From Escherichia phage PE37: 64,000 nucleotides of DNA. This document shows positions 4,144 to 60,771 of the stretch, piece by piece. The position numbers were made by a program, and so were the translations under genes. The stretch is from sequence record NC_054929.1; one strand, given 5' to 3'. Position 1 is the first letter of the stretch. Each line of letters opens with the position of its first letter. A model generated the notes under the pieces. That model worked only from the letters and a program-made list of their open reading frames with translations, made no database searches and was not told the DNA's origin.

Positions 4144-4186
4144 GTTTACAGTATGGTTCCTTTGTGATAGTATTATCTTACACAAA
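4144..4186 (+). promoter_or_regulatory. early promoter with stem-loop (PeSL-like)
   Basis: GTTTAC at 4144-4149, -10 TAGTAT at 4168-4173; IR TTTGTG (4161-4166) / CACAAA (4181-4186). Confidence 0.6.
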
Positions 4187-4200
4187 CAAAGGAGAATAAA

Positions 4201-4533
4201 ATGAAAACGATTAATCTGAACGCTGCAGTTAAGACTAAATGCTTCAATGGTAAATATGATGAAACTATGTGGTTCTTAATGGCAGTTGAAGGTGATATTA
4301 TTGAAGTAGAAACAACAGAAGGTATGGGAACAGATTTCACCTTTACAATTCAAGTTCATAATTTCTTTACTGGTTGGATTTATGAATTGAATACAGTAAT
4401 CGTTGGAAAAATTGAACAAAATGAATTAGGCGAATGGTATTATGTTACAGCTCGCCAACGTGCCGAACGTTTGATTGAGAAGATGAAAAAAGTTGGTAAA
4501 CTTGACATGAAGCACTGGAAAGTAGTAAAATAA
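4201..4533 (+). CDS. hypothetical protein (110 aa)
   Basis: follows early promoter cassette and GGAGAATAAA-ATG RBS. Confidence 0.55.
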   Translation: MKTINLNAAVKTKCFNGKYDETMWFLMAVEGDIIEVETTEGMGTDFTFTIQVHNFFTGWIYELNTVIVGKIEQNELGEWYYVTARQRAERLIEKMKKVGKLDMKHWKVVK

Positions 4534-6986: not shown

Positions 6987-7255
6987 TGTTTGTCGTTCAC
7001 ACTATTTATGAAAATGAAGGTAATACTACACGTGATTACGGTCACGTAAATCAATTTTTTAGATGCAATCCAGAATTTCGAGCTCAAAAAGACGAACGAA
7101 TTTTTAAAAAATGTGTAGAGCAAGGTTTCATTTACGTCAAGCACTGGATGCAAGGAAATAAAGTTAGAACAACGTACCACAGGTCTTTGACTGAGCTTAA
7201 TGATGAATTGATTTATAATAGAGCTGTAAACCAAACTCTAAAGGATGAACAATGA
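6986..7255 (+). CDS. hypothetical protein (89 aa)
   Basis: TAATG overlap. Confidence 0.5.
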   Translation: MFVVHTIYENEGNTTRDYGHVNQFFRCNPEFRAQKDERIFKKCVEQGFIYVKHWMQGNKVRTTYHRSLTELNDELIYNRAVNQTLKDEQ

Positions 7256-8718
7256 TTCTTAAAATTCTGAACGAAATAGCATCTATTGGTTCAACTAAGC
7301 AGAAGCAAGCAATTCTTGAAAAGAACAAAGATAATGAATTGCTTAAACGAGTATATCGTCTGACTTATTCTCGTGGGTTACAGTATTATATCAAGAAATG
7401 GCCTAAACCTGGTATTGCTACCCAGAGTTTTGGAATGCTGACCATTACCGATATGCTTGACTTCATTGAATTCACGTTAGCTACTCGGAAATTAACTGGC
7501 AATGCAGCAATTGAGGAATTAACTGGATATATCACCGATGGTAAAAAGGATGATGTTGAAGTTTTGCGTCGAGTTATGATGCGAGACCTTGAATGCGGTG
7601 CTTCAGTATCTATTGCAAACAAAGTTTGGCCAGGTTTAATTCCTGAACAACCTCAAATGCTGGCAAGTTCTTATGATGAAAAGGGCATTAGTAAGAATAT
7701 CAAATTTCCAGCCTTTGCACAGTTAAAAGCAGATGGAGCCCGGTGTTTTGCTGAAGTCCGAGGTGATGAATTAGATGATGTTCGTCTTTTATCACGAGCT
7801 GGTAATGAATATCTAGGATTAAACCTTCTCAAAGAAGAGTTAATCAAAATGACCGCTGAAGCTCGCCAGATTCATCCAGAAGGTGTGTTAATTGATGGCG
7901 AATTGGTAGTATACCATGAGCAAGTTGAAAAGGAGCCAGAAGGTCTAGATTTTCTTTTTGATGCTTATCCTGAAATTAGTAAAGCTAAAGAATTCGCTGA
8001 AGTAGCTGAATCACGTACTACTTCTAATGGAATAGCTAATAAATCTTTAAAGGGAACCATTTCTGAAAAAGAAGCACAATGCATGAAGTTTCAGGTCTGG
8101 GATTATGTTCCATTAGTAGAAATATACGGTCTTCCAGCATTTCGTTTGAAATATGATGTACGTTTTTCTAAACTAGAACAAATGACATCGGGATATGATA
8201 AAGTAATTTTAATTGAAAACCAGGTAGTAAATAACCTAGATGAAGCTAAGGTAATTTACAAAAAGTATATTGACCAAGGTCTTGAAGGTATTATTCTCAA
8301 AAATATCGATGGATTATGGGAAAATGCTCGTTCAAAAAATCTTTATAAATTTAAAGAAGTAATTGATGTTGATTTAAAAATTGTAGGAATTTATCCTCAC
8401 CGTAAAGACCCTACTAAAGCGGGTGGATTTATTCTTGAGTCAGAGTGTGGAAAAATTAAAGTAAATGCTGGTTCAGGCTTAAAAGATAAAGCCGGTGTAA
8501 AATCGCATGAACTTGACCGTACTCGCATTATGGAAAACCAAAATTATTATATTGGAAAAATTCTAGAGTGCGAATGCAACGGTTGGTTAAAATCTGATGG
8601 CCGCACTGATTACGTTAAATTATTTCTTCCAATTGCGATTCGTTTACGTGAAGATAAAACTAAAGCTAATACGTTCGAAGATGTATTTGGCGATTTTCAT
8701 GAGGTAACTGGTTTATGA
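7252..8718 (+). CDS. 30: ATP-dependent DNA ligase
   Basis: 488 aa; KADGAR adenylation motif; sequence matches my recollection of T4 DNA ligase. Confidence 0.95.
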   Translation: MILKILNEIASIGSTKQKQAILEKNKDNELLKRVYRLTYSRGLQYYIKKWPKPGIATQSFGMLTITDMLDFIEFTLATRKLTGNAAIEELTGYITDGKKDDVEVLRRVMMRDLECGASVSIANKVWPGLIPEQPQMLASSYDEKGISKNIKFPAFAQLKADGARCFAEVRGDELDDVRLLSRAGNEYLGLNLLKEELIKMTAEARQIHPEGVLIDGELVVYHEQVEKEPEGLDFLFDAYPEISKAKEFAEVAESRTTSNGIANKSLKGTISEKEAQCMKFQVWDYVPLVEIYGLPAFRLKYDVRFSKLEQMTSGYDKVILIENQVVNNLDEAKVIYKKYIDQGLEGIILKNIDGLWENARSKNLYKFKEVIDVDLKIVGIYPHRKDPTKAGGFILESECGKIKVNAGSGLKDKAGVKSHELDRTRIMENQNYYIGKILECECNGWLKSDGRTDYVKLFLPIAIRLREDKTKANTFEDVFGDFHEVTGL

Positions 8719-8903
8719 AAGCTTACTTAGAAACAATTGTCGTGGCTCAAAAAGAAGGTGGAGATGTTTCTACTTCTGTATCACAAATCATGATTGAATT
8801 TATAGATGCATATGCTTATAATAAATTCACAGAAACTTTTGATGCTTATGAAAAAGGTCCAAAGTTTGAAATATATCGTACTCTCTTACAAATAGATTAT
8901 TAA
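8715..8903 (+). CDS. hypothetical protein (62 aa)
   Basis: ATGA overlap with ligase; followed by terminator hairpin. Confidence 0.45.
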   Translation: MKAYLETIVVAQKEGGDVSTSVSQIMIEFIDAYAYNKFTETFDAYEKGPKFEIYRTLLQIDY

Positions 8904-8928
8904 AGGCCTTCGGGCCTTTAATTTTATA
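8903..8928 (+). terminator. intrinsic terminator
   Basis: AAGGCC-TTCG-GGCCTT hairpin followed by TAATTTTA. Confidence 0.65.
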
Positions 8929-8932
8929 AATA
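8925..8932 (+). promoter_or_regulatory. late promoter TATAAATA (alt)
   Basis: exact 8-mer 24 nt upstream of alt ATG, just after a terminator. Confidence 0.7.
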
Positions 8933-8955
8933 GAATAAACACTAGAGAGGATATG

Positions 8956-11049
8956 ATGGAACTCATTACAGAATTATTTGACGAAGATACTACTCTTCCG
9001 ATTACAAACTTAAATCCAAAGAAGAAAATACCACAAATTTTTTCAGTTCACGTTGATGATGCAATTGAACAACCAGGCTTTCGTTTATGTACCTATACAT
9101 CTGGAGGTGATACTAATCGCGATTTAAAGATGGGAGATAAAATGATGCATATTGTTCCTTTTACATTAACTGCTAAAGGTTCAATTGCTAAATTAAAAGG
9201 TCTGGGTCCAAGCCCGATTAATTATATCAATTCAGTTTTTACTGTTGCAATGCAAACAATGCGTCAATATAAAATTGATGCCTGTATGCTTCGTATTCTT
9301 AAGTCTAAAACTGCTGGCCAAGCTCGACAAATTCAAGTTATTGCTGATAGACTTATCCGTAGTCGTTCAGGTGGTAGATACGTCCTTCTTAAGGAACTCT
9401 GGGATTACGATAAAAAGTATGCATATATTCTTATACATCGCAAAAATGTATCACTAGAAGACATTCCAGGAGTTCCGGAAATTAGTACCGAGCTCTTTAC
9501 TAAAGTTGAATCGAAGGTCGGTGATGTTTATATCAATAAAGATACTGGAGCTCAAGTAACTAAAAATGAGGCAATTGCAGCATCTATTGCGCAAGAAAAT
9601 GATAAACGTTCTGACCAAGCTGTAATCGTTAAAGTTAAAATTTCACGTAGAGCAATTGCGCAAAGTCAATCATTGGAATCTTCTAGATTTGAAAGTGAAT
9701 TATTCCAGAAGTATGAATCTACCGCAGCTAATTTCAATAAACCTGCTACCGCTCCTTTAATTCCCGAAGCAGAAGAAATGAAGCTTGGAATTAATTCGTT
9801 AGCTTCTAAAACTAAGGCAGCAAAAATTATTGCTGAAGGAACTGCGAATGAACTTCACTATGACTATAAATTCTTTTCAAAAAGTGAGGTTGATGAAGTT
9901 TCAGAAAAAATTAAAGATGTAATTTTTAACGCAATCAAAAATGAACCAACTACTTCAATAAAATGTTTAGAGAAATACGCAGCAGCTGTTAATAAATTCT
10001 TTGAAGAATATAAAGATAATTGGCTTGATAAACATAATAAAACTCGTAAAGGGCAACCAGATGAAGTCTGGGGAGAAATAACTAAAAATGCATGGAATAC
10101 AGCAAAAACTAAATTCCTCAAACGAATGATTTATAGCTTTTCTGGAATTGGTGCTGGTCCAATGATTGATATTACTATTGCCCGTGATGGTTCTAAATAT
10201 ACTCCATCACAAAAGCGAGGTATTAGAGAATATTGTGGTTCAGGATATACAGACATTAATAATCTTCTTTTAGGTCGTTACAATCCAGAACGATATGATG
10301 TAATGAGTGAAAAAGAAATTGAATCTGCTATAAATAACTTAGATTCAGCTTTTGAAAATGGTGACCGTATACCAGAAGGCATTACAGTTTATCGTGCTCA
10401 AAGTATGACTGCTCCTATATATGAAGCGTTAGTTAAAAATAAAGTGTTCTATTTCAGAAATTTTGTATCTACTTCTTTAACTCCTATTATTTTTGGACGT
10501 TTTGGAATCACACATGCTGGTATTGGTCTTTTAGAACCAGAAGCTCGCAATGAATTAACAGTTGATAAAAATGAAGAAGGAATAACTATTAATCCAAACG
10601 AAATAAGAGCGTATAAAGAAAATCCTGAATACGTTAAAGTTCAAATAGGATGGGCAATTGATGGAGCTCATAAAGTTAATGTTGTATATCCAGGAAGTCT
10701 TGGAATAGCAACAGAAGCTGAAGTTATTCTACCGCGTGGATTGATGGTCAAAGTTAATAAAATAACTGATGCTTCTAATAATGACGGAACAACATCTAAT
10801 AATACAAAACTCATTCAAGCTGAAGTTATGACCACGGAAGAGCTCACCGAATCGGTAATCTATGATGGAGACCATTTAATGGAAACTGGTGAATTGGTTG
10901 CAATGACAGGTGATACTGAAATAGAAGACAGAGTTGACTTTGCATCATTTGTTTCATCAAATGTTAAACAGAAAGTCGAATCATCTCTTGGAATTATTGC
11001 GTCTTGCATAGATATTACAAACATGCCTTACAAGTTCGTTCAAGGATAA
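8956..11049 (+). CDS. alt: Alt ADP-ribosyltransferase (virion-packaged)
   Basis: N-terminus MELITELFD; R (YRAQ), STS and EAE motifs of the R-S-E ADP-ribosyltransferase fold; late promoter TATAAATA upstream. Confidence 0.9.
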   Translation: MELITELFDEDTTLPITNLNPKKKIPQIFSVHVDDAIEQPGFRLCTYTSGGDTNRDLKMGDKMMHIVPFTLTAKGSIAKLKGLGPSPINYINSVFTVAMQTMRQYKIDACMLRILKSKTAGQARQIQVIADRLIRSRSGGRYVLLKELWDYDKKYAYILIHRKNVSLEDIPGVPEISTELFTKVESKVGDVYINKDTGAQVTKNEAIAASIAQENDKRSDQAVIVKVKISRRAIAQSQSLESSRFESELFQKYESTAANFNKPATAPLIPEAEEMKLGINSLASKTKAAKIIAEGTANELHYDYKFFSKSEVDEVSEKIKDVIFNAIKNEPTTSIKCLEKYAAAVNKFFEEYKDNWLDKHNKTRKGQPDEVWGEITKNAWNTAKTKFLKRMIYSFSGIGAGPMIDITIARDGSKYTPSQKRGIREYCGSGYTDINNLLLGRYNPERYDVMSEKEIESAINNLDSAFENGDRIPEGITVYRAQSMTAPIYEALVKNKVFYFRNFVSTSLTPIIFGRFGITHAGIGLLEPEARNELTVDKNEEGITINPNEIRAYKENPEYVKVQIGWAIDGAHKVNVVYPGSLGIATEAEVILPRGLMVKVNKITDASNNDGTTSNNTKLIQAEVMTTEELTESVIYDGDHLMETGELVAMTGDTEIEDRVDFASFVSSNVKQKVESSLGIIASCIDITNMPYKFVQG

Positions 11050-11052
11050 ATC

Positions 11053-13110
11053 ATGGAACTTATTACAGAATTATTTGACGGCGCTTCGGCGCCGGTTGTT
11101 AACTTAAATCCTAAGCATAAAATACCACAAATTTTTGCTATTCAAGCCGGCGAAGAAAGCGTGCTTCCTGGATTTAGATTTTGTACATACACCTCTGGTG
11201 GTGATACGAATAAAAACGTTAAGCCAGGCGATAAAATGATGCATATCGTAATGATAGGTGTTAATGAGAAATTATCGTTAGTTAAGCTTAAAAACTTGGG
11301 TGGAAATCCAATTGGTGTCATTAATGCGGTTTTTGATACTGCTCTTCAAACAATGAAACAGTATAAAATTGATGCATGTTTATTCCGCGTACTAAAAAGT
11401 AAAACAAATGGCGCAGCTCGTCAAATGCAAGTTATTGCTGACCGTTTAGTACGTACTAAAGGAGCAGGTCGATATGTTCTTTTAAAGGAAATCTGGGATT
11501 ATGATAAAAAGTATGCATATATTATGGTTTACCGTAAAAATGCCAATTTAGAAGACATTCCAGGTGTACCTCCTATTTCAACTGAGTTATTCACAAAAGT
11601 TGAATCAAAGGTTGGTGATGTTTATGTAGACGTTAAAACAGGTAATGCTGTTCCTAAAGCTGTTGCTGTTGCCGCTTCTATTGCTTTAGAAAATGATAAG
11701 CGCACGGATCAAGCTGTTATTCAGAAAACTAAAATTAGTCGTCGATTAGCAGCACAAGCTCAATATTCTACTGTCGATGCTTCACTTCAGGGTGATAGCT
11801 TCGCCGCTAAGAAATATCAAGAGTTTGAATCTAAAGTTCCGGTATATAAAGCAGAAGGACCAATGAACTCTGGCGTTATTCAGATTGGTTCAAACTTCAG
11901 CAAAGGAGCTATCGGTGGTATGAGAAGTGCTTCTCGTTTTAAATCTAATGATTATGAACTAGAAAGTTTCCGAAATCATATTGCATTAGCCCATGCACGT
12001 TTACGCGATCCATCTATCAAGCTGCAGAGCGATACATCATATCAAGGTTCCCAGGAATATTTAAAGAATAAAGACTTCTTTAATTACAAAACTGATAAAA
12101 TTTTAAGCGATCTTGCTGATATTAATATTTCTAATAGTTTTGATGTTATTAAGAAAATTATCAATGATTTAGTTAAAGGTTCTAAAGCTACACCAGATGA
12201 AAAGACAGCTATTATTCAATTTGTAATGAATGGAATTTATAAATTAATTGATGAATCCGCTGCTCAGGCGTATGAATATGCAAGCACTGAAGTAACTCCA
12301 AAAGGATTAACTCAGGCTGAGTCCGATGTAATTGAAGATTATTGTGCAGATTCATATGTTGAAATGAACTCGTTCCTCTTGGGTAAACCAGATTCTACCC
12401 GTGAAGAATACATGGAACGAGCTATTAAACACATCGAGACAATGGATTCTGCCTTTGCCAAAGGATCAGTTCTTCCTCCAGGAACTACGCTTTATCGTGG
12501 ACAAGAAGTTACCTTTAAAACTTTACGTCATAATATTGAAAATAAAATGTTCTACTTCAAGAACTTCGTATCCACATCGCTTAAACCAAATATCTTCGGT
12601 GAGCATGGTAAAAACTATATGGCTCTAGATGATTCCGGTGCAGTATTTTCTGGTGAAGGAGAAGGTTCCGTTGATGCTGAAGATTTAATGCATATGGGTA
12701 GTCATTCTGCTTATGCGAATGAAGATGCTGAAACTAGCGTGGGTATGGTAATAAAAGGAGCTGAGCGAATTAAAGTTATCGTTCCAGGTCATTTATCAGG
12801 ATTTCCATCAGAAGCTGAAGTTATTCTACCGCGTGGAATTTTGCTGAAGATTAATAAAGTGAGTACTTACTTTATGAAAGAAACTGCTTATAACAAGTAT
12901 CTAATCGAAGGTACAATCGTTCCTCCTTCTGAACAATTAGAAGAATCAGTATATGATGGCGACCATCTAATGGAAACTGGTGAAGTTCGTCCAATGGCTG
13001 GATTTAATCAATTCCTTGTAGAAGAATCAAAAGAAGAGGAAAACGAAGTTTCTCAAATCTTAGCTTCTTTGGTTAACATCAACGGAATGTCTAAAAAGTT
13101 CAAGATGTAG
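11053..13110 (+). CDS. Alt-like ADP-ribosyltransferase paralog
   Basis: 685 aa; same MELITELFD N-terminus, conserved YRGQ/STS/EAEVILPRG motifs, divergent middle. Confidence 0.85.
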   Translation: MELITELFDGASAPVVNLNPKHKIPQIFAIQAGEESVLPGFRFCTYTSGGDTNKNVKPGDKMMHIVMIGVNEKLSLVKLKNLGGNPIGVINAVFDTALQTMKQYKIDACLFRVLKSKTNGAARQMQVIADRLVRTKGAGRYVLLKEIWDYDKKYAYIMVYRKNANLEDIPGVPPISTELFTKVESKVGDVYVDVKTGNAVPKAVAVAASIALENDKRTDQAVIQKTKISRRLAAQAQYSTVDASLQGDSFAAKKYQEFESKVPVYKAEGPMNSGVIQIGSNFSKGAIGGMRSASRFKSNDYELESFRNHIALAHARLRDPSIKLQSDTSYQGSQEYLKNKDFFNYKTDKILSDLADINISNSFDVIKKIINDLVKGSKATPDEKTAIIQFVMNGIYKLIDESAAQAYEYASTEVTPKGLTQAESDVIEDYCADSYVEMNSFLLGKPDSTREEYMERAIKHIETMDSAFAKGSVLPPGTTLYRGQEVTFKTLRHNIENKMFYFKNFVSTSLKPNIFGEHGKNYMALDDSGAVFSGEGEGSVDAEDLMHMGSHSAYANEDAETSVGMVIKGAERIKVIVPGHLSGFPSEAEVILPRGILLKINKVSTYFMKETAYNKYLIEGTIVPPSEQLEESVYDGDHLMETGEVRPMAGFNQFLVEESKEEENEVSQILASLVNINGMSKKFKM

Positions 13111-13162
13111 TTTACAAGGCCCTCATGTTGTGTTATAGTAGTCTTACTGACACAACATGAGG
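13110..13162 (+). promoter_or_regulatory. early promoter with stem-loop (PeSL-like), 12-bp perfect inverted repeat
   Basis: GTTTAC at 13110-13115, TGtTATAGT -10 at 13134-13139; IR CCTCATGTTGTG (13121-13132) / CACAACATGAGG (13151-13162). Confidence 0.65.
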
Positions 13163-13170
13163 AACACAAA

Positions 13171-13461
13171 ATGAAATCTTCTTTGCGCTTTTTAGGTCAA
13201 GAACTCGTCGTTGAAGGCGTTATTCCCGCTGATAACGCTTTCAATGAAGCAGTTTACGATGAATTTATCAAAATTTTTGGAACAGATAAAAAGTTCGGAA
13301 TTTTTCCTTCTGAAAATTTTTCAAAGCCAGAACAGACTGAAAGTATTTTTCAGGGTGTAGTAACAGGTAAATTTGAGTCAGAAGCTCCGGTAAAAATTGA
13401 AGTTTATATTGAAGAAACCTCTGTTGCTTCAGTTGCTGCTTTTATTTCATTCCGTAAATAA
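13171..13461 (+). CDS. hypothetical protein (96 aa)
   Basis: ATG after early promoter/stem-loop cassette; followed by bidirectional terminator. Confidence 0.5.
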   Translation: MKSSLRFLGQELVVEGVIPADNAFNEAVYDEFIKIFGTDKKFGIFPSENFSKPEQTESIFQGVVTGKFESEAPVKIEVYIEETSVASVAAFISFRK

Positions 13462-13467
13462 AAATAT

Positions 13468-13485
13468 GGGGACCGAAAGGTCCCC
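13468..13485. terminator. bidirectional terminator between convergent genes
   Basis: GGGGACC-GAAA-GGTCCCC; T-rich on both sides. Confidence 0.65.
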
Positions 13486-13489
13486 ATTG

Positions 13490-14455
13490 TTATATTGCTC
13501 CTAATATTTTACTTTGCGAATTGACAATTCCTGTCATAGTATTAATATTTGAAATGCTTCCTGCAGTTCCCCCTAATCTACTAAGTCGTGAAAGCGAATT
13601 AGATAGTCCAGTAACACCTCCACTATTTCCGAGAACGCTTTGAATACCATTTATAGTAGCAGATTCAAGCCATTCAAGGGCAGCTTGTCTATCAACTGCT
13701 CCAGCCTGCATGACTCTATAAGCGAAAGTAACATCAAATGTAGTTATTTGGTTATCTCCATCATATGATAACTCAGGAGCACTCACAGATATTGGAATAC
13801 AGCCAGTGAACATCACCGCAGTATGTGGTAATCCATTGCGAGAATGAAGATTGACCTGAATATCTGCCTCGACATCTTGCGGTAAAGCACGCAATCCAGT
13901 TACTGGGTCTTGAACAGCGTTAACCCAGTCTTGCATTGCACGATAGTTACAAGCTTCGGAATCCATTCTAAATGAAATAACCAAAGGGTCTAATTCTCTT
14001 CCAGTTATACGAATATTAGGAGAATTATAGTTCCAGTCAGTTTCATAGGATAATCTATTCTCTGGCATTTTTACAGAATATATCATCAATCCAGATGAGT
14101 TATATGCCATGTTAAAGAAGTCAATTAAATATGTACCAACTGTAAATGAGCCTAATAAACTTTGAACTGTACGTTGACTCATGGCACCAATAAGATATTT
14201 ACTAACCCCTGATTTTCTTATCAGTTTTTGTGTGCCAGCGGTAATTAGCGTGGTAATTCCCTGATTAATATCACCTTGAGTTAATCCCAACCAATCTGAA
14301 TTTAGACCCAAGTTATTATAAGCAAAGTTACTAATTGAGCTTATTAACGATGAGCTTTTAGTTGATGGAGTTGTAGCAAAAACACAGCTGAACATATTAT
14401 TACGTTGGAAGTCTGCGTTTATTGCTTGATTATTAAATTCCTCTAAAGAATACAT
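13490..14455 (-). CDS. 54: baseplate tail-tube initiator
   Basis: 321 aa; position and length as T4 gp54. Confidence 0.85.
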   Translation of the reverse strand: MYSLEEFNNQAINADFQRNNMFSCVFATTPSTKSSSLISSISNFAYNNLGLNSDWLGLTQGDINQGITTLITAGTQKLIRKSGVSKYLIGAMSQRTVQSLLGSFTVGTYLIDFFNMAYNSSGLMIYSVKMPENRLSYETDWNYNSPNIRITGRELDPLVISFRMDSEACNYRAMQDWVNAVQDPVTGLRALPQDVEADIQVNLHSRNGLPHTAVMFTGCIPISVSAPELSYDGDNQITTFDVTFAYRVMQAGAVDRQAALEWLESATINGIQSVLGNSGGVTGLSNSLSRLSRLGGTAGSISNINTMTGIVNSQSKILGAI

Positions 14456-15549
14456 TAGAAAGTCCCCGTATATAAAGAAGCACGGTTTAACGTAATAATC
14501 TCTCTCATAGTAATCTCGAGTGTAAAAGAACTTGGAAGGTTAGGAGCAATAGCTAATCCATTAAAGTTACCATTTGGTGTTTTATCAAATCTAATACTCT
14601 GTATTTGGCATGGACCGAATACTTCAGTCTTTCCATCAAATTTAGAAGTTGCACCAAAGTTTTTCACCATCCAAATTGTCGGGTTTGAAACTACAAGAAC
14701 GTTCGTTAAACTCGATGTCATTTTTTCAAATAACGTCTTGTTTTTAATCGCGTCTTCTGGCGTTAATGGTTCAATAAATGTAGAACGATACCACTCATCT
14801 AAATATCCTTTTATTTCAGCAGCATATTGAGATTTACCAGTTTCACCGTAAGAAAAATAGTTAAAATACTGATAGATATTAATAATAGCCATTAAATCTT
14901 CTGTTGAGCGTGGAGTCAAATCCCAGGTGAACACTTTTGTTCTATTTTCAGCACCGCCATACATACTTCTAGCTGTTGTATAGATCTGTTCATTATTATC
15001 AGCCATTATTCCTTGTGTTATACTTTCAAGCGCGCCAAATACTGCAGTTGAAGCCATATTACTTAATACGCCCGTAGCAGTTCCTCCGCCTTTTGTAATA
15101 AGACTATCTTGAACATCATTAAATCTATGTGATGACGTATCGACGTCAGATTTAGATCTAGGTAAAAGAATATTTGCAACAGGAACTTTACTTATTGTTC
15201 CTGAATTATTATCTGATATTAGTCCATTTGATAGTTTTGATACTGTATTACTGATAGTGTTTCTGGCTGTACGTAAAATACTCGAAGATGAAGAAGAGTA
15301 GTTAGATCTCATCGTTCTAAGACTTCCAGAATCCCTAGATGACATATTGTATGCAGTAAATAATAATCCATTCTTATATAGATCTGTTACCTGGAAGTCC
15401 CCTGTAGTGTCATTACCACTAGCACGCCCAGTTGGAAACTGGGCTGTGTATGTTTTAGTTCCTACTTCTGATTTAGTACTCTGTCCGGCTGAAATTGTTT
15501 CACCGGACTTTTTAATTAAATCAGCAGTTATTTCTTTAACAATTGCCAT
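14455..15549 (-). CDS. 48: baseplate tail-tube cap
   Basis: 364 aa; synteny; stop overlaps gp54 start. Confidence 0.85.
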   Translation of the reverse strand: MAIVKEITADLIKKSGETISAGQSTKSEVGTKTYTAQFPTGRASGNDTTGDFQVTDLYKNGLLFTAYNMSSRDSGSLRTMRSNYSSSSSSILRTARNTISNTVSKLSNGLISDNNSGTISKVPVANILLPRSKSDVDTSSHRFNDVQDSLITKGGGTATGVLSNMASTAVFGALESITQGIMADNNEQIYTTARSMYGGAENRTKVFTWDLTPRSTEDLMAIINIYQYFNYFSYGETGKSQYAAEIKGYLDEWYRSTFIEPLTPEDAIKNKTLFEKMTSSLTNVLVVSNPTIWMVKNFGATSKFDGKTEVFGPCQIQSIRFDKTPNGNFNGLAIAPNLPSSFTLEITMREIITLNRASLYTGTF

Positions 15550-15557
15550 ATTATTCC

Positions 15558-17330
15558 TTAATTAACTCCCGTCGCGCCAAATACACCAGGAGCAGTTGTG
15601 CTTGTGACAGGTGTCATATTATGAACGACAGTATTTTTCTTAATAACATTATTAGTATTATTGATTGAAGGAGATGCTTGTTGAACAGGAGCTTGTTGTG
15701 CTTTGTTCTTTTCAATCACCTGGACCTGTTTTGCTTCTGGCGATTTAGCAGAAGTTTCAGGTTTTGCTTCAGGTTGATTTTTCTTGAGCTCTTGATAAGT
15801 GGCATCAATTTTAGCAAATCTAGAAGCAAGTTCTTTTTTAACTGCTGGTGAATTATTTAAATCCGGATCATTCATTCGTTTTTTAAGGTCTTCATGAGCA
15901 GCTTCAATTGATTTAACTGTCGAGTCTTTGCTCATATCAGCTGAATCAGCGTATTTTTCAAAACGAATCATCGCAGCACGAGCTTCATTAGCTTTCATTA
16001 AAGCATTTTTTCTTTCTTCCGGTGAAAGTTGTTTTAATTTTTCTTCTTCTGCTGCACGTTCTTCGTCAGTAGTCAATGCTTCTTTATTATCTACACCACG
16101 AATCCAGTTAGATGCACGAGTTTTCCAATTCGCAATTTTGTCTAATCCTTTTGCTAATGGGCCAAGATCATCATTCATTCGTTTATCTTGATAATTTGCT
16201 ACTTTTTCTTGGTCTTCTTTATTAAGAGATGCTCCAGTAGAATTTTGAAAATTTTCTAATGCTCTTCCTTCTACTTCATCAGCAGTATCCTTCATGCCAG
16301 GAATAACTCGAAGAATTGCTGCAGATAATTTAGCCATACCTAATTGAATAAGCTCTCCTAAATTATAAAGAACACTTCCAAGCCCTTCAACAATAGCTAC
16401 TGTTAATCCGCCCCAATCTCCAGCTTCCCAGAACTTTTTAATTTCATCAATAGATTCAAAGATGCTTTGTAATAAAGGACCCCAAGTTCCTGTTTCGCTT
16501 GAGAAAGTTTTAAAATCAGTGCTAAATAAATCCCAGGCTTTTGAAAATTTATCTGACCAGTATTTAAAATGAACCATCAGCAGGTCTATTCCAATAACAA
16601 CAGCCATTATCAATGCAACCATTTTAGCAGCTTCAATAGCAGCACTGACGGTATACTTAAATAGCATGCTAGATATTTTATCAGTAATTGAAATAGATTT
16701 CTTAAATCCGAAATCAACTGTCTTTGTTAATTTATCTAAAGCTTGAGATAATTTTAAGTTAAATGCGTCTCTTTTTTGCTTCTCTTCTGGAGACTCTTGT
16801 TTTGGTTCAATTGGCTGAGGAGTAGGGAAAAAATCAGCATCAGGATCATTATTAACCGCTTCAGGAGCCGGTAATAAAGGACCCACAGATTCAGCTGTAT
16901 CATCCTCGACGACTTTAACAGGAATAGCATTTTCGACTACTGCTAAACTCGTTCCAGTTTGCTGAATTCCAGCTGTCTGAATTTTTTGTTCCAGTAAACT
17001 TGTTAATTTATCTAATTTGCTTCCGAGCGATTCACCGATTTCTTTATTAATATTGTTTCCAATTTCAACAGTTTCAGCAATTAACTCAGAACCAGCAGTA
17101 GTATCACTCACTGCGCTTTCTACATTGTCAATTGCTCCAATTATTTCATTCGATTTTTCTTCAACAGTTTGAGCAATTAATTCAGACGCAGCTTGAGCAT
17201 CATCCAATTTCGTAGATATATCGTTAAGTCCAGATAAAGTGTTAGAAGCGGATTTAGCCGCTTCCTGTGTTGGTTTATTATCTGAAATAACTTTTCTACG
17301 CATCGTTTGCATTTCTTGTGGCTTTTTCAT
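15558..17330 (-). CDS. 29: tail tape-measure / baseplate hub protein
   Basis: 590 aa; coiled-coil-rich; synteny. Confidence 0.85.
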   Translation of the reverse strand: MKKPQEMQTMRRKVISDNKPTQEAAKSASNTLSGLNDISTKLDDAQAASELIAQTVEEKSNEIIGAIDNVESAVSDTTAGSELIAETVEIGNNINKEIGESLGSKLDKLTSLLEQKIQTAGIQQTGTSLAVVENAIPVKVVEDDTAESVGPLLPAPEAVNNDPDADFFPTPQPIEPKQESPEEKQKRDAFNLKLSQALDKLTKTVDFGFKKSISITDKISSMLFKYTVSAAIEAAKMVALIMAVVIGIDLLMVHFKYWSDKFSKAWDLFSTDFKTFSSETGTWGPLLQSIFESIDEIKKFWEAGDWGGLTVAIVEGLGSVLYNLGELIQLGMAKLSAAILRVIPGMKDTADEVEGRALENFQNSTGASLNKEDQEKVANYQDKRMNDDLGPLAKGLDKIANWKTRASNWIRGVDNKEALTTDEERAAEEEKLKQLSPEERKNALMKANEARAAMIRFEKYADSADMSKDSTVKSIEAAHEDLKKRMNDPDLNNSPAVKKELASRFAKIDATYQELKKNQPEAKPETSAKSPEAKQVQVIEKNKAQQAPVQQASPSINNTNNVIKKNTVVHNMTPVTSTTAPGVFGATGVN

Positions 17331-17860
17331 TCAAATAATCCAATAATATTGCCAATTCCGGTTATTGGACCATTAGGGCCAGGAATTGCTAAAGTTGTAG
17401 AAATATCATTTGCCCATTTTAAAACAAATGCTGGCATCTCAAGAAAATTAATTTCTTTAACTTCATCGTTGACCTTAAGCAAGCATTTAGATAACATATC
17501 GCTCACCGTTAAAAATTGTTCAAATTTTCCAGGAGGTCTAAAATAAAATGTATTTCCTTGGTATTGAAATTCTAATCTTTGGCACACATAAACATCATTA
17601 ATGTCATAAGTATAACCATCTATTTCTTTACGAGATTTAATCTTTCCATTAAATTCCAATAAATGAATAGAAACGAAATCAACTTCTGCCGGTGATAAAT
17701 TCGGACAAATAGAATCAATAAGAAGTTTTAAATTTTCATCAGGACCTTTAACATCTTTTAAAATGTTATAATGTTTAAGACCCATTTTAGGAATAGAAAC
17801 TTCTTTATTGCTTATTGGAAGAACTACTTTCTTCAGTGGTAGTATCAGATTTAAATTCAT
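17327..17860 (-). CDS. 28: baseplate hub distal subunit
   Basis: 177 aa; synteny; N-terminus overlaps gp27 3' end. Confidence 0.8.
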
Positions 17861-18980
17861 TTTTAACCTTAACTGGGTCTATTGTTTCCAGTTTCGTTGC
17901 ATTAGTGAACATATATAGATGTGTTACTGAATTATTATTGGATAATTCATGGATAACTTCATCAACGTAAAATTCTGTTTTAAATTGGTTTTTACTATCA
18001 TTAAAAATAATTTTAACGCCAGGAGTCAAGTTAAAATTACCGACAGTAGAACATTTAGCATAGCCATCATATTGTGCCATAGTTTGAAGACGAATAGCTT
18101 CTTCATATCCATTTCTATAAGTCATTTCAGAATAAGCACCTGACCTTGACACTACAATAGAGTTTTCACCCTTTCCTGTAGTAATCATTGGCAATGAAGA
18201 ATCCAAAAACGAATGCGCATAGATAGTAGCGTTTTTCATTGGGTCACGTTTGTGAGGATTCGATTTAGTCAACCAAACGAAATCATATGCCAATGGATAT
18301 TTTAATTCTTGGATGAATTGACCTATTAAAGATGGCTCACCGACAATCATTGGATATGGTTCTTGATTTATCATCATATCATAGTCCATCATGTTAACTC
18401 CCATGATGTCTTGCCACACAAATACAAATTTGTCACTTCCTACAGCTAGAGCAACTTCTCTAACATATGACAAATAGTTTTCAAATGTACTAGTCCACGG
18501 AATATCAGGAACATAAGCATTTATAGCATTTATTGCTGGAGTTAATAACGTGCGATCCTGATAAATGACACCAAGCATTTCCTTTATAGATTCACCTGCA
18601 TCAGAGAAAAACGGTCTGCCAAATTTAAGATTTTCTATAGAATGAATAGTTCCCAATTCAATAGCAATGATGTTATCACCCTTTGAATCTACTGACACGG
18701 AAAAATGCTTACATCCATAAATTCGTGTTTTAACATTATTAATATCGTTTGCATTAGCTACAGAAATCTGAATTATTTCATTTCCATCCATTTTTGTATG
18801 AATGTTTTTAGAATCATAAAATTGTAGCATTCCTTCATTTCGACCATAAAGAGAGTCACGCATAGTTAATGTGGTAATAGTAGCAGCTAATTCAACAAAT
18901 CTATTATTACTCCAAGCGTCATAACTCTCAAATAATTTAACGCTGAGATTTGGATATCCAGGACGTTGTAACATACTCAT
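17805..18980 (-). CDS. 27: baseplate hub subunit
   Basis: 391 aa; synteny. Confidence 0.85.
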
Positions 18981-19729
18981 TGATGCTTATCCTTCTCAAT
19001 CAGTTTTAATACGAATCCGCGCTCGGCAGGAATCATTTTCATTATTGAATTTAAGCTATAATTACTTTTTACAAGCGTGTGATTAATTTGATAAAAAGTA
19101 AATATCTCATCTGGATTAACTAATAGCTTAAACACATCTACTATATCAGTGTATTTTTTAATGTACTTATCACAACACGACATGTGCAATGTTAAATTAA
19201 TAGGATTCATTGCATCGAGAATTTTTTCTAATGTTTCTATCTCGATGGCGTCAACAAGTTCTATTTGACTTGATTCACTAATTTCCTTCCAATCATACCA
19301 CATTTCATCTACTTGGACAGAATGAATATTTTCAGTAATCATCTTTGCTTTATTTTCATAAAACTCAGAAGGAAAATTTAATTTAATTTTAACATTAGCT
19401 ACATCAAAAATAGGTTCCTTTAATTCTTTTTGATATATTTCAAATGGAACTGTCTTTTCTTTTTTACATTTTGGACATATGAATGTGACTGGTACTTTAG
19501 TTTTACCTATTGACCCTACAAATACCTGCAAAAATATAAATGGTTGCCAAGTCTTTGGATAGTCTCCAAAATAATCAGCAATTAAATCAGCAATTACTTC
19601 TTTTTGTTCTTGTGGTGACCGATGTTCTATATCGTTTCGAACTAACAAAAAATCTCGATAATCTTCTACCGTAAATGGTTTAAAACGATGAACACCATCT
19701 GGTAATTTACAACGAATAATGTTTGCCAT
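18977..19729 (-). CDS. 51: baseplate hub assembly catalyst
   Basis: 250 aa; late promoter on minus strand at 19747-19754. Confidence 0.8.
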
Positions 19730-19746
19730 AGATGCTCCTTTTATTC

Positions 19747-60350: not shown

Positions 60351-60389
60351 GTTTACATACTGATGAGGTAGTGATACTATTACCTCATC
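60351..60389 (+). promoter_or_regulatory. early promoter with stem-loop (PeSL-like)
   Basis: GTTTAC at 60351-60356, TGaTACTAT -10 at 60375-60380; IR GATGAGGTA (60362-60370) / TACCTCATC (60381-60389). Confidence 0.65.
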
Positions 60390-60410
60390 AAAATTAATTA
60401 GGAAAATAAA

Positions 60411-60713: not shown

Positions 60714-60751
60714 GTTTACATAGGGTTTTAGTTGTGATACTATTACCCTAT
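60714..60751 (+). promoter_or_regulatory. early promoter with stem-loop (PeSL-like)
   Basis: GTTTAC at 60714-60719, TGaTACTAT -10 at 60738-60743; IR ATAGGGT (60720-60726) / ACCCTAT (60745-60751). Confidence 0.65.
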
Positions 60752-60771
60752 CAACTACTGAGGAGAATAAA

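Follow-up and report, generated by a model that had tools for sequence, protein, structure and literature searches.

A T4-type early promoter between alt2 and alt.-3 of Escherichia phage PE37, with an RNA hairpin that may insulate translation

The window analyzed here, a stretch of 64,000 nucleotides from Escherichia phage PE37 (NC_054929.1; genus Tequatrovirus), carries an early sigma-70 promoter immediately downstream of a pair of alt genes, and the spacer and leader of this promoter contain the two arms of an inverted repeat. On balance, we consider it probable that this element combines the early promoter of alt.-3 with an RNA hairpin acting as a translational insulator. In the mechanism we propose, the spacer would code for an anti-Shine-Dalgarno arm, CCTCATGTTGTGT, and the leader for its partner, ACACAACATGAGG, which contains the Shine-Dalgarno sequence (SD). 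RNA begun near A13146 would start past the 5' arm, leaving the SD free, and Alt.-3 would be made early, whereas RNA arriving from upstream, mainly late alt mRNA from the promoter TATAAATA at 8925, would bring both arms. In such read-through RNA the SD would be buried within an 18-bp hairpin, and alt.-3 would go untranslated from the late message. A 54-bp copy of the element located before alc would act likewise.

Early promoter and hairpin of alt.-3

The features of the locus to which the analysis refers are listed below.

8925 to 8932, plus strand: late promoter TATAAATA of the T4 type, 5' of alt and preceded by a terminator-like hairpin (8899-8922)
8953 to 11049, plus strand: alt, 698 aa, RNA polymerase ADP-ribosyltransferase
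11053 to 13110, plus strand: alt2, 685 aa, a full-length Alt paralogue, with stop codon TAG at 13108-13110
13091 to 13109, plus strand: UP-element-like A-rich stretch CTAAAAAGTTCAAGATGTA, within the 3' end of alt2
13110 to 13116, plus strand: -35 element GTTTACA of the T4 early type, with the sigma-70 hexamer TTTACA at 13111-13116
13121 to 13133, plus strand: hairpin 5' arm CCTCATGTTGTGT, wholly within the 17-bp promoter spacer (13117-13133)
13131 to 13139, plus strand: extended -10 element TGtTATAGT, with the -10 hexamer at 13134-13139
13137 to 13148, plus strand: inner 4-bp stem AGUA / UACU with loop GUCU, from fold prediction, containing the predicted start A13146
13150 to 13162, plus strand: hairpin 3' arm ACACAACATGAGG, the last four bases of which (GAGG, 13159-13162) are the SD of alt.-3
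13171 to 13461, plus strand: alt.-3, 96 aa, a conserved protein without assigned function, ATG at 13171
13466 to 13487, both directions: bidirectional intrinsic terminator ATGGGGACC-GAAA-GGTCCCCAT, from the terminator scan and an inverted-repeat search

The terminator at 13466-13487 closes the alt/alt2/alt.-3 unit as well as the convergent gene 54 unit; the terminator scan called no terminator between the alt start and 13466, and a motif search found no TATAAATA from 10337 to 19746. In RB51, alt2 bears the name 'alt.-2'. The alt.-3 gene is dispensable, and mutants with a C-terminal extension of alt.-3 escape CmdTAC defence.

The promoter consists of GTTTACA, a 17-bp spacer and TGtTATAGT, with the TG at -15/-14. 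The pattern GTTTAC-N18-TAnnnT is found six times in the window, always on the plus strand, compared to an expectation of 0.78, and the site at alt.-3 has been annotated independently by another group as T4-early-promoter-like (record OL960580). The -35 element, which is invariant as GTTTACA, the 17-bp spacing, the extended -10, the sequence ATGAGGA and the 8-nt gap to the ATG are all conserved in nine genera. UP elements are carried by T4 early promoters. On the basis of sigma-70 geometry, transcription is predicted to start at A13146, 7 nt past the -10, which corresponds to about position 123,057 of T4. Time-resolved omics data for T4 place alt.-3 in the early class both as RNA and as protein, alt.-1 and alt.-2 in the RNA-middle class, and alt among genes that are RNA-middle and protein-late; since the class changes from RNA-middle to early at this point, an early promoter is needed between the alt genes and alt.-3. 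The DksA RNA-seq paper makes no mention of alt or alc. Promoters of other classes were considered for the loop and rejected, as no late TATAAATA is present and no MotA box of a middle promoter was seen by eye.

An earlier note had described a perfect 12-bp stem enclosing TGtTATAGT and preceding a 96-aa ORF. Its arms, CCTCATGTTGTG (13121-13132) and CACAACATGAGG (13151-13162), were confirmed, as was the ORF at 13171-13461, and TGtTATAGT is indeed enclosed by the repeat, its TG falling within the 5' arm and its TATAGT in the loop. The perfect repeat is, however, 13 bp long (13121-13133 and 13150-13162), with arms 16 nt apart. Nor does the stem begin at the alt2 stop codon, as had been stated: it starts 11 nt past the TAG, and it is the -35 element that begins there instead, G13110 being common to the stop codon and to GTTTACA. 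The earlier description also overlooked the SD of the ORF, GAGG, which closes the 3' arm and lies 8 nt from the ATG; CCTCATG in the 5' arm is the corresponding anti-SD. In RNA, the helix is lengthened by a U13134.G13149 pair and by the inner stem (13137-13140 / 13145-13148). The predicted hairpin has an energy of -25.1 kcal/mol (z = -5.3), and none of 200 shuffled sequences was equally stable. The bare repeat, by itself, is only mildly unusual: perfect repeats of at least 13 bp with a loop of 3-40 nt are expected 0.13 times per 64 kb, and one was observed. No Rfam covariance model matched positions 13110-13170, even at E <= 1. The possibility that the hairpin is an intrinsic terminator was rejected, given a tail, AACACAAA, that contains no U, a loop of 16 nt (or, alternatively, an inner stem), and its absence from the terminator list.

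Predicted occlusion of the ribosome-binding site

Because the 5' arm sits inside the spacer, the transcript of the alt.-3 promoter itself cannot contain it; late alt read-through RNA includes both arms. The predicted cost of opening the region from SD-2 to AUG+2 is 14.6-16.1 kcal/mol in read-through RNA (about 15.6 in the window) and 3.7-4.7 kcal/mol in promoter-initiated RNA. These energies were calculated for the window, T4 and fPS-90, and start sites 5-8 nt after the -10 all give the same contrast. In read-through RNA, the predicted probability that the SD is unpaired is about 0.000. From these models, we infer that the hairpin would form in vivo and would depress translation of alt.-3 from read-through RNA. 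Counting against insulation, weak pairing of the SD persists in promoter-initiated RNA (about 4.7 kcal/mol in the window). A further observation that counts against it concerns T4, where the remnant ORF alt.-2 ends within the loop, so that ribosomes translating it would open the stem.

A second copy before alc and the genome-wide pattern

A 54-bp block whose ends are the G of GTTTACA and GAGGA is found again before alc, about 15.8 kb away, with 51-53 of the 54 positions identical. The alc copy is present in essentially every Tequatrovirus; we found 990 copies of the block in 500 records, with both copies fixed at the same two loci throughout the genus. The flanks of the two copies are unrelated on both sides, and the right-hand limit of the block falls where the stem ends on its 3' side. 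Since there are two sharply bounded 54-bp copies per genome, the cassette has been copied at least once. At alc, the helix is extended by locus-specific bases. Comparison of the two copies yielded no clear signal of concerted evolution (53/54 identical in T4, 51/54 in HEMP5). In T4, RnlA is late as a protein and Alc is early/early. The earlier suggestion of a cassette is borne out in that this is a discrete regulatory cassette with a 54-bp copy before alc; a link to the alt pair or to its copy number is not.

The genome-wide test was run on the sister genome HEMP5, which is unannotated, with promoters defined by pattern. Strong hairpins are associated with 12 of 32 early promoters in this genome (permutation P < 5e-5). 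Duplexes between cognate spacers and leaders average -10.2 kcal/mol, compared to -6.8 kcal/mol for non-cognate combinations, and none of 20,000 permutations reached as low a value; the 18 nt located 5' of the -35 showed no cognate pairing effect. Anti-SD 4-mers are found in nine of the 32 spacers against a background of 7.7% (P = 5e-4). For each of the 12 strong hairpins, sense RNA folds more stably than antisense RNA. Their 3' arm falls on the SD in seven cases and off it in the remaining five, and because the latter leave the SD untouched, SD occlusion cannot be the sole function of such stems.

These data raise the possibility, which we put forward tentatively and consider more doubtful than probable, that T4-type early promoters are systematically self-insulating cassettes in which the untranscribed spacer codes for an anti-leader. 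Such an anti-leader would take the form of a direct anti-SD arm at alt.-3 and alc, of a helix right after the -10 at other promoters, and of the spacer hairpin ACA-AGGA-UGU at the orthologous alt.-3 promoter in other genera. An early gene would then be translated only from RNA begun at its own promoter, with no protein made from the read-through RNA that prevails later.

Conservation and variation of the stem

The perfect Watson-Crick stem of the window is a rare variant. The majority form in Tequatrovirus, including T4 and T2, has G.T at two positions, and no record in the phage collection matched the 59-mer of the window at >=99% identity, the best match being 57/59. The corresponding two G.U pairs function on plus-sense RNA only. 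Variants were drawn from IMG/VR (five loci) and metagenome contigs (five loci), and further sequences were sampled from the phage collection. Over 20 distinct Tequatrovirus sequences, 98.5% of the cells are paired, and double-sided compensatory changes number zero among these sequences, in a covariation test that has no power and uninformative shuffle controls. Stem and loop are about equally variable (8/26 and 5/16 variable sites, respectively), and pair-breaking changes occur in five isolates, among them L005, LF73P3 (two changes), SA21RB and HEMP5. These alignments do not demonstrate that purifying selection acts on the stem.

Across genera, ATGAGGA at the 3' arm is kept, and the long SD-covering helix is not conserved beyond Tequatrovirus. 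In six other genera, the difference between read-through and own-promoter RNA is just 1-4 kcal/mol, and a small hairpin within the spacer is found instead. A helix of unrelated sequence and the same geometry, formed by the spacer with the AUG and the first codons, is present in Kanagawavirus IME523 (14.7 versus 1.5-3.9 kcal/mol); it is not shared with the Karamvirus relatives. Conservation of alt.-3 SD occlusion across genera was, on these figures, rejected, the effect being large only in Tequatrovirus and in IME523. As a separate observation, the spacer hairpin at the orthologous alt.-3 promoter of other genera, ACA-AGGA-UGU (ACAAGGAUGU), matches the CsrA SELEX consensus core.

The alt pair and loss of alt2

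From its position next to a duplicated gene, the stem-loop had been judged compatible with a part in cassette shuffling or recombination, which breaks of homology at the stem would bear out. In orthologous comparisons, homology instead runs unbroken through the stem-loop in all of about 500 relatives, and the order of alt stop codon, promoter and alt.-3 is kept in nine genera regardless of whether one or two alt genes are present. The pair itself is not a recent duplication, as Alt and Alt2 are old paralogues with 41.6% amino acid identity, and there is no comparable element at the alt/alt2 boundary. Two independent losses of alt2 were identified, both with endpoints inside coding sequence, at short repeats and off the stem: the T4-type loss occurred between 9-bp direct repeats, CTAAAAAGT, at 11392-11400 and 13091-13099, and the 'sutha'-type loss by a homeologous alt/alt2 crossover near 11037-11046 / 12983-12994. 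Both types leave the promoter, the hairpin and alt.-3 intact. A stem-loop serving as the breakpoint of the alt duplication is not supported.

Alternative explanations

If the hairpin were a transcription attenuator or terminator directed against read-through from alt and alt2, alt.-3 would be transcribed only from its own promoter. The location of the hairpin directly 3' of the alt2 stop codon is compatible with this role, the sense-strand G.U pairs indicate action as RNA, and attenuation would cover the five of 12 HEMP5 hairpins whose 3' arm lies off the SD; moreover, a promoter-early stem-loop (PeSL) of phage RB49, placed between a promoter and lacZ, cut expression about as strongly as rrnB T1. 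Nevertheless, we regard attenuation as unlikely, although it deserves serious consideration. A U-tract is lacking: the sequence that continues from the stem, AACACAAAAUG, is free of U over its first 8 nt, and the scan that called 13466-13487 did not call the hairpin. The stems, in contrast to those of GGGG...CCCC type assayed in RB49, are not rich in GC, and both the coincidence of arm and SD in 7/12 hairpins and the enrichment of anti-SD words are left unexplained. Another alternative is an element acting at the DNA level that controls the promoter, for instance in early-promoter shut-off, be it a cruciform or the operator of a dimeric DNA-binding protein. Such a role would account for a dyad symmetry centred on the -10, and how T4 shuts off its early promoters is unexplained, but as DNA the majority form is mismatched (G.T) at two positions, 12/12 strong hairpins favour sense RNA, and the arm sequences differ at every promoter, which provides no common recognition sequence. 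Cruciform extrusion is also disfavoured by a loop of 16 nt, and altogether we give a DNA-level role very little credence.

It is also conceivable that selection acts on the promoter and the ribosome-binding site only and that the stem is a harmless by-product of the cassette with no function of its own. Promoter and ribosome-binding site alone are conserved across genera, compensatory covariation is absent, variability is no lower in the stem than in the loop, with broken pairs in several isolates, and a perfect 13-bp repeat in 64 kb is not extremely improbable. The excess of cognate pairing, which none of 20,000 permutations matched, the 12:0 bias for sense RNA, the enrichment of anti-SD words and the unrelated helix of the same geometry in IME523 argue for selection, however, and make a functionless stem rather improbable. 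We assign a marginally lower likelihood, again a small one, to the cassette being mainly a portable patch of homology for the insertion, deletion and exchange of neighbouring genes. Two copies per genome with sharp boundaries of homology would suit this purpose, both recombination between PeSLs and mini-circles have been shown for RB49/phi1, and less than 50 bp of homology suffices for recombination in T4. Yet the alt2/alt.-3 junction is among the most stable examined (nine genera, about 500 genomes), both alt2 losses used other sequences, the two copies are fixed genus-wide, and exchange between them as direct copies would remove about 15.8 kb, the DNA ligase gene included. Recombination, furthermore, gives no cause for the G.U asymmetry or for the coincidence of arm and SD.

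Implications

Alt.-3 and Alc are early proteins related to host takeover or anti-defence, and their genes lie directly 3' of those for Alt and RnlA, which are needed late. Tying translation to the choice of start site, as in the insulator mechanism favoured here, would explain how Alt.-3 and Alc are made early only, with neither a terminator nor a repressor. If early promoters are indeed self-insulating in a systematic way, PeSL stem-loops would have to be seen as translational insulators instead of terminators or recombination sites, and early protein synthesis could be shut off without the help of any factor. Should the genome-wide pattern hold (about 40% of early promoters), it would amount to a simple design rule for early genes of T4-like phages and for phage expression cassettes.

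Relation to known systems

By its structure, the hairpin-promoter element fits the PeSL cassettes described in T4-type phages (Arbiol et al. 2010, PMC2839356; Comeau et al. 2014, PMC4122927). These were conceived as mobile regulatory cassettes, and their authors assign to the stem-loop a terminator-like function, measured for one RB49 stem-loop. The 2014 paper locates the stems 'just upstream of the promoter', which would speak against counting the hairpin as a PeSL stem-loop, but that objection is overturned by the 2010 definition, which recognizes five positional subclasses of stems, most often overlapping the -10 or lying between it and the -35 (PMC2839356). Like a PeSL, the element is intergenic, begins at the upstream stop codon, lies within an A/T-rich stretch, carries a stem-loop with G-T pairs of the subclass 'overlapping the -10 box', has an SD and ATG at its 3' end and is repeated within the genome; its promoter, a strong early one of the sigma-70 type, fits the PST/T4 consensus TTTACW-N17-TAYWAT at 11/12 positions. 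It differs in that its stem lacks a terminator tail and is of another type than GGGG/CCCC, and in that the 3' arm is the SD, a feature not discussed in the PeSL papers (the 2010 text does not contain the word 'translation'). Its location is also different, namely the conserved core junction of alt and gene 54 and not a hyperplastic region, with no association with indels. Promoter-containing repeats at the internal-protein loci of T-even phages (Repoila et al. 1994, as cited in Arbiol et al. 2010, PMC2839356) are, as summarized there, similar in being repeated blocks with T4 early promoters that flank small early genes; those genes are highly polymorphic, whereas the ones described here are conserved.

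The leader hairpins that sequester the ribosome-binding sites of T4 e, soc, 49 and I-TevI (Uzan and Miller 2010, PMC3014915) offer the closest parallel to the regulation proposed for alt.-3. As in those genes, the SD is predicted to lie in a helix on a long RNA initiated upstream, a promoter is predicted to give rise to a transcript that lacks the 5' half of the helix and frees translation, and synthesis of the protein would be limited in time with no trans-acting factor involved. The polarity is reversed: the known promoters are late (TATAAATA) and the hairpins silence early read-through, whereas the promoter of alt.-3 is of the early sigma-70 type and its hairpin, as predicted from sequence alone, would silence middle and late read-through, with the promoter spacer itself providing the 5' arm.

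Gene context and the early promoter before alt.-3

The sequence belongs to a Tequatrovirus of the RB51/RB68/AR1 kind (97–98% identity over 12600-13700; 498 phage records match), and in it genes 54, 48 and 29 converge from the opposite strand toward the following series:

7252-8718, + strand: DNA ligase gene 30
+ strand: alt.1
8953-11049, + strand: alt
11053-13110, + strand: alt2, a full-length second Alt paralogue
13171-13461, + strand: alt.-3, 96 aa
13466-13487: bidirectional terminator

At 8899-8932, a terminator-like hairpin, TTAAAGGCC-TTCG-GGCCTTTAA, runs directly into a late promoter, TATAAATA (8925-8932), 21 nt 5' of the alt ATG; this junction sets late alt apart from the early ligase unit. 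Wild-type T4 Alt.-3 is dispensable and without known function, and C-terminal extensions of it, made by stop read-through toward the 13466-13487 terminator, lead to escape from CmdTAC defence (PMC11618068).

Homologues of alt.-3 are found in 835 phage records, from which nine genera were compared (Tequatrovirus, Dhakavirus, Mosigvirus, Marfavirus together with a near-identical unclassified Klebsiella phage, Karamvirus, Kanagawavirus, Gelderlandvirus, Kagamiyamavirus and an unclassified Citrobacter straboviridae phage). The gap from the stop of the last alt gene to alt.-3 is 56-60 bp throughout, bar one Karamvirus record whose annotated start lies 18 nt further 3' and whose sequence aligns like that of the other genera. 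Within the gap, little or nothing changes from genus to genus in GTTTACA, the 17-bp spacing, TGnTAnnnT or ATGAGGA-8 nt-ATG, except that Karamvirus has a different Shine-Dalgarno (SD) sequence, a shifted GAGGAGA with a 5-nt gap. The -35 GTTTACA, the T4 early-promoter form, begins here at G13110, the final base of the alt2 stop codon, and the extended -10 TGtTATAGT follows 17 bp 3' of it. The pattern GTTTAC-N18-TAnnnT has six sites in the window where 0.78 would be expected, and all six are on the + strand; one GenBank submitter gave the orthologous site the label T4-early-promoter-like. Time-resolved T4 data on transcripts and proteins place alt.-3 as RNA-early and protein-early, the adjoining alt.-1 and alt.-2 as RNA-middle, and alt as RNA-middle and protein-late (PMC9697503, supplements). 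On the basis of cross-genus conservation and this timing, an early promoter in the alt2/alt.-3 gap, with a predicted start site, is well supported.

A hairpin around the -10 and its predicted effect on translation

The perfect inverted repeat that the earlier note had described around this -10 is present, although it comprises 13 rather than 12 bp (13121-13133 and 13150-13162, 13/13 complementary, 16-nt gap). Folding as RNA adds a U.G pair and, further in, a stem of 4 bp (-25.1 kcal/mol, z = -5.3). It is the sole perfect repeat of such size in the window, with 0.13 expected per 64 kb, a rarity that is not by itself decisive. The promoter spacer holds the whole 5' arm, the loop contains the -10 together with A13146, the predicted start, and the 3' arm terminates in GAGG, 8 nt 5' of the alt.-3 ATG. 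Structurally, the element satisfies the published definition of promoter-early stem-loop (PeSL) cassettes (Arbiol 2010, PMC2839356), the source for the T4/PST promoter consensus being Comeau 2014 (PMC4122927); it is a real, well-positioned structure, namely a PeSL-type T4 early promoter.

Since the 5' arm lies inside the spacer, it is absent from every transcript of the alt.-3 promoter; transcripts started upstream would carry both arms. From the late promoter to 13466, the terminator scan found no strong-stemmed terminator-like site, the sole + strand call being a weak 5-bp stem within alt. The predicted cost of opening SD-2 to AUG+2 is 15.6 kcal/mol in read-through RNA versus 4.7 kcal/mol in promoter-initiated RNA, with similar costs in T4 and fPS-90 and independently of the exact start site. 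The ribosomal helicase acts at position +11, from which a ribosome stopping at 13108-13110 should reach only ~13116, so that alt2 translation should leave the stem unmelted. The most probable reading, held with moderate confidence, is that the stem hides the ribosome-binding site of alt.-3 in a manner that depends on where transcription starts.

Hairpins at other early promoters

Other T4-type early promoters lie at 1126-1175, 4144-4203, 60351-60400, 60714-60760 and 63954, the last being excluded as cut by the window end. In all four examinable cases the -10 is bracketed by an inverted repeat with its 5' arm in the spacer, and the arm sequences differ at each. At the 4144 promoter, the downstream ORF, with its start at 4201, has the SD AAAGGAG, and this SD forms the 3' arm (opening 10.3 vs 0.5 kcal/mol). 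A strong PeSL-style terminator is located just 5' of this promoter.

A genome-wide test was run on HEMP5, a close relative with a complete genome, using a strict promoter pattern that gave 32 matches, all on the early strand; two promoter pairs are paralogous, and the effective sample is therefore slightly below 32. The mean spacer/leader duplex energy was -10.2 kcal/mol for cognate and -6.8 for non-cognate combinations, a cognate mean reached in 0 of 20,000 permutations, and for 11 of the 32 promoters the cognate leader ranked first among all 32. The 18 nt 5' of the -35, tested as a control, gave no cognate duplex effect. Nine of the 32 spacers contain anti-SD words, the background rate being 7.7% (P = 5e-4). 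Strong hairpins (<= -11 kcal/mol) number 12, with the 3' arm on the SD in seven and directly after the -10 in five.

On the HEMP5 reverse strand, 99419 and 151876 mark a near-identical early-promoter cassette pair, AAGACTGTTCCTCyGTGG-TACTAT-...ACGGAGGAACA, in which the spacer provides a perfect anti-SD to the leader of the same promoter (-23 to -24 kcal/mol). The leader form ACAACTATCAACT...GGATTTGGAGAATAAAATG is common to several other HEMP5 promoters and, together with this pair, indicates that cassette families are common in that genome.

Variation among relatives and a second copy at alc

Of the stem cells in 22 Tequatrovirus sequences, 20 of them distinct, 98.5% are paired; four stem pairs alternate between Watson-Crick and G.U, the variants recurring, and the four broken cells each occur in one sequence, with a fifth in HEMP5. 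The perfect stem of the window is a rare variant (closest database match 57/59), and the commonest form has two G.U pairs, tolerable only in + sense RNA.

The long helix was not found in the genera examined outside Tequatrovirus, most of which have a small hairpin within the spacer with differing stem sequences (relative loci L008, L014, L009, L010, L011, L013, L029 and L030). These hairpins are of 4-6 bp, ~45 nt 5' of the ATG (CCACA/UGUGG, CAUCC/GGAUG, CACA/UGUG), and their loops contain GGA. The VR5/EcS1 form, ACAAGGAUGU, fits the 10-nt core of the CsrA SELEX consensus RUACARGGAUGU (PMC4347634), and two exact copies on the HEMP5 early strand (reverse strand 102390 and 146867; 0.2 expected) both lie within early-promoter spacers; judged by this match, the spacer hairpin could be a CsrA site restricted to read-through RNA. 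In Kanagawavirus IME523, an Enterobacter phage (locus L012, 2468-2530), the spacer GCUCGAAUGAACGUGUU pairs with the alt.-3 AUG and first codons (opening 14.7 vs 1.5-3.9 kcal/mol), a helix unlike the Tequatrovirus hairpin in sequence but alike in geometry, and not present in the two Karamvirus relatives examined.

The cassette has a second copy in the interval separating rnlA from alc, where its 54 bp begin at the G of GTTTACA, end with GAGGA and match the alt.-3 copy at 51-53 of 54 positions, inside unrelated flanks:

T4 136276-136339 (locus L036, 1777-1840): alc copy
HEMP5 15448-15501, reverse strand: alc copy

The earlier note was right to regard the element as a cassette. The cassette was found in 990 places in 500 records, from which we judge the alc copy to be present in essentially all Tequatrovirus; it would sit ~2.2 kb 5' of the window start. 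At alc the helix is lengthened toward the AUG by locus-specific bases. RnlA is a late protein, whereas Alc is RNA-early and protein-early; both copies thus stand where a gene needed late is followed by an early-only gene.

Discussion

The PeSL authors proposed functions in termination and recombination (Arbiol 2010; Comeau 2014). An attenuator, in line with the former, seems doubtful to us here, and a recombination module quite improbable. The proposed association with the alt pair did not hold, alt and alt2 being 41.6% identical with no promoter-hairpin element at their boundary; nor does homology break at the stem-loop, being continuous across it in every relative. Some 95 records, T4 included, lack most of alt2, nearly all by one common junction (window 11400 joined to 13091) with 9-bp direct repeats CTAAAAAGT (11392-11400 and 13091-13099) as exact endpoints; this classic short-repeat deletion cut alt2 down to alt.-1/alt.-2 in the T4 type. 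A second, independent route to loss of the pair is seen in phage 'sutha' (locus L027, 1490-1530), which has a single chimeric alt from a homeologous crossover at the alt/alt2 3' ends (AAGTTCGTyCAA; window ~11037-11046 / ~12983-12994). Both events left promoter, hairpin and alt.-3 intact.

That the hairpin has no function at all is improbable in our view. Stem and loop are equally polymorphic in the Tequatrovirus set, and double-sided compensation is absent from its 20 distinct members, the genus being too shallow to prove selection. A role at the DNA level is scarcely credible: in all 12 strong HEMP5 hairpins the sense RNA is stabler than the antisense, and 20 of their 159 pairs are G.U, which argues against it.

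The proposed masking of the ribosome-binding site and the genome-wide regularity can both be tested and, within the literature accessible, have not been described. The PeSL authors do not discuss translation (Arbiol 2010; Comeau 2014). T4 e, soc, 49 and I-TevI are established cases of start-site-dependent masking (PMC3014915). The alt.-3 element would share their logic but, unlike them, is an early promoter, with late read-through as the transcript to be silenced.
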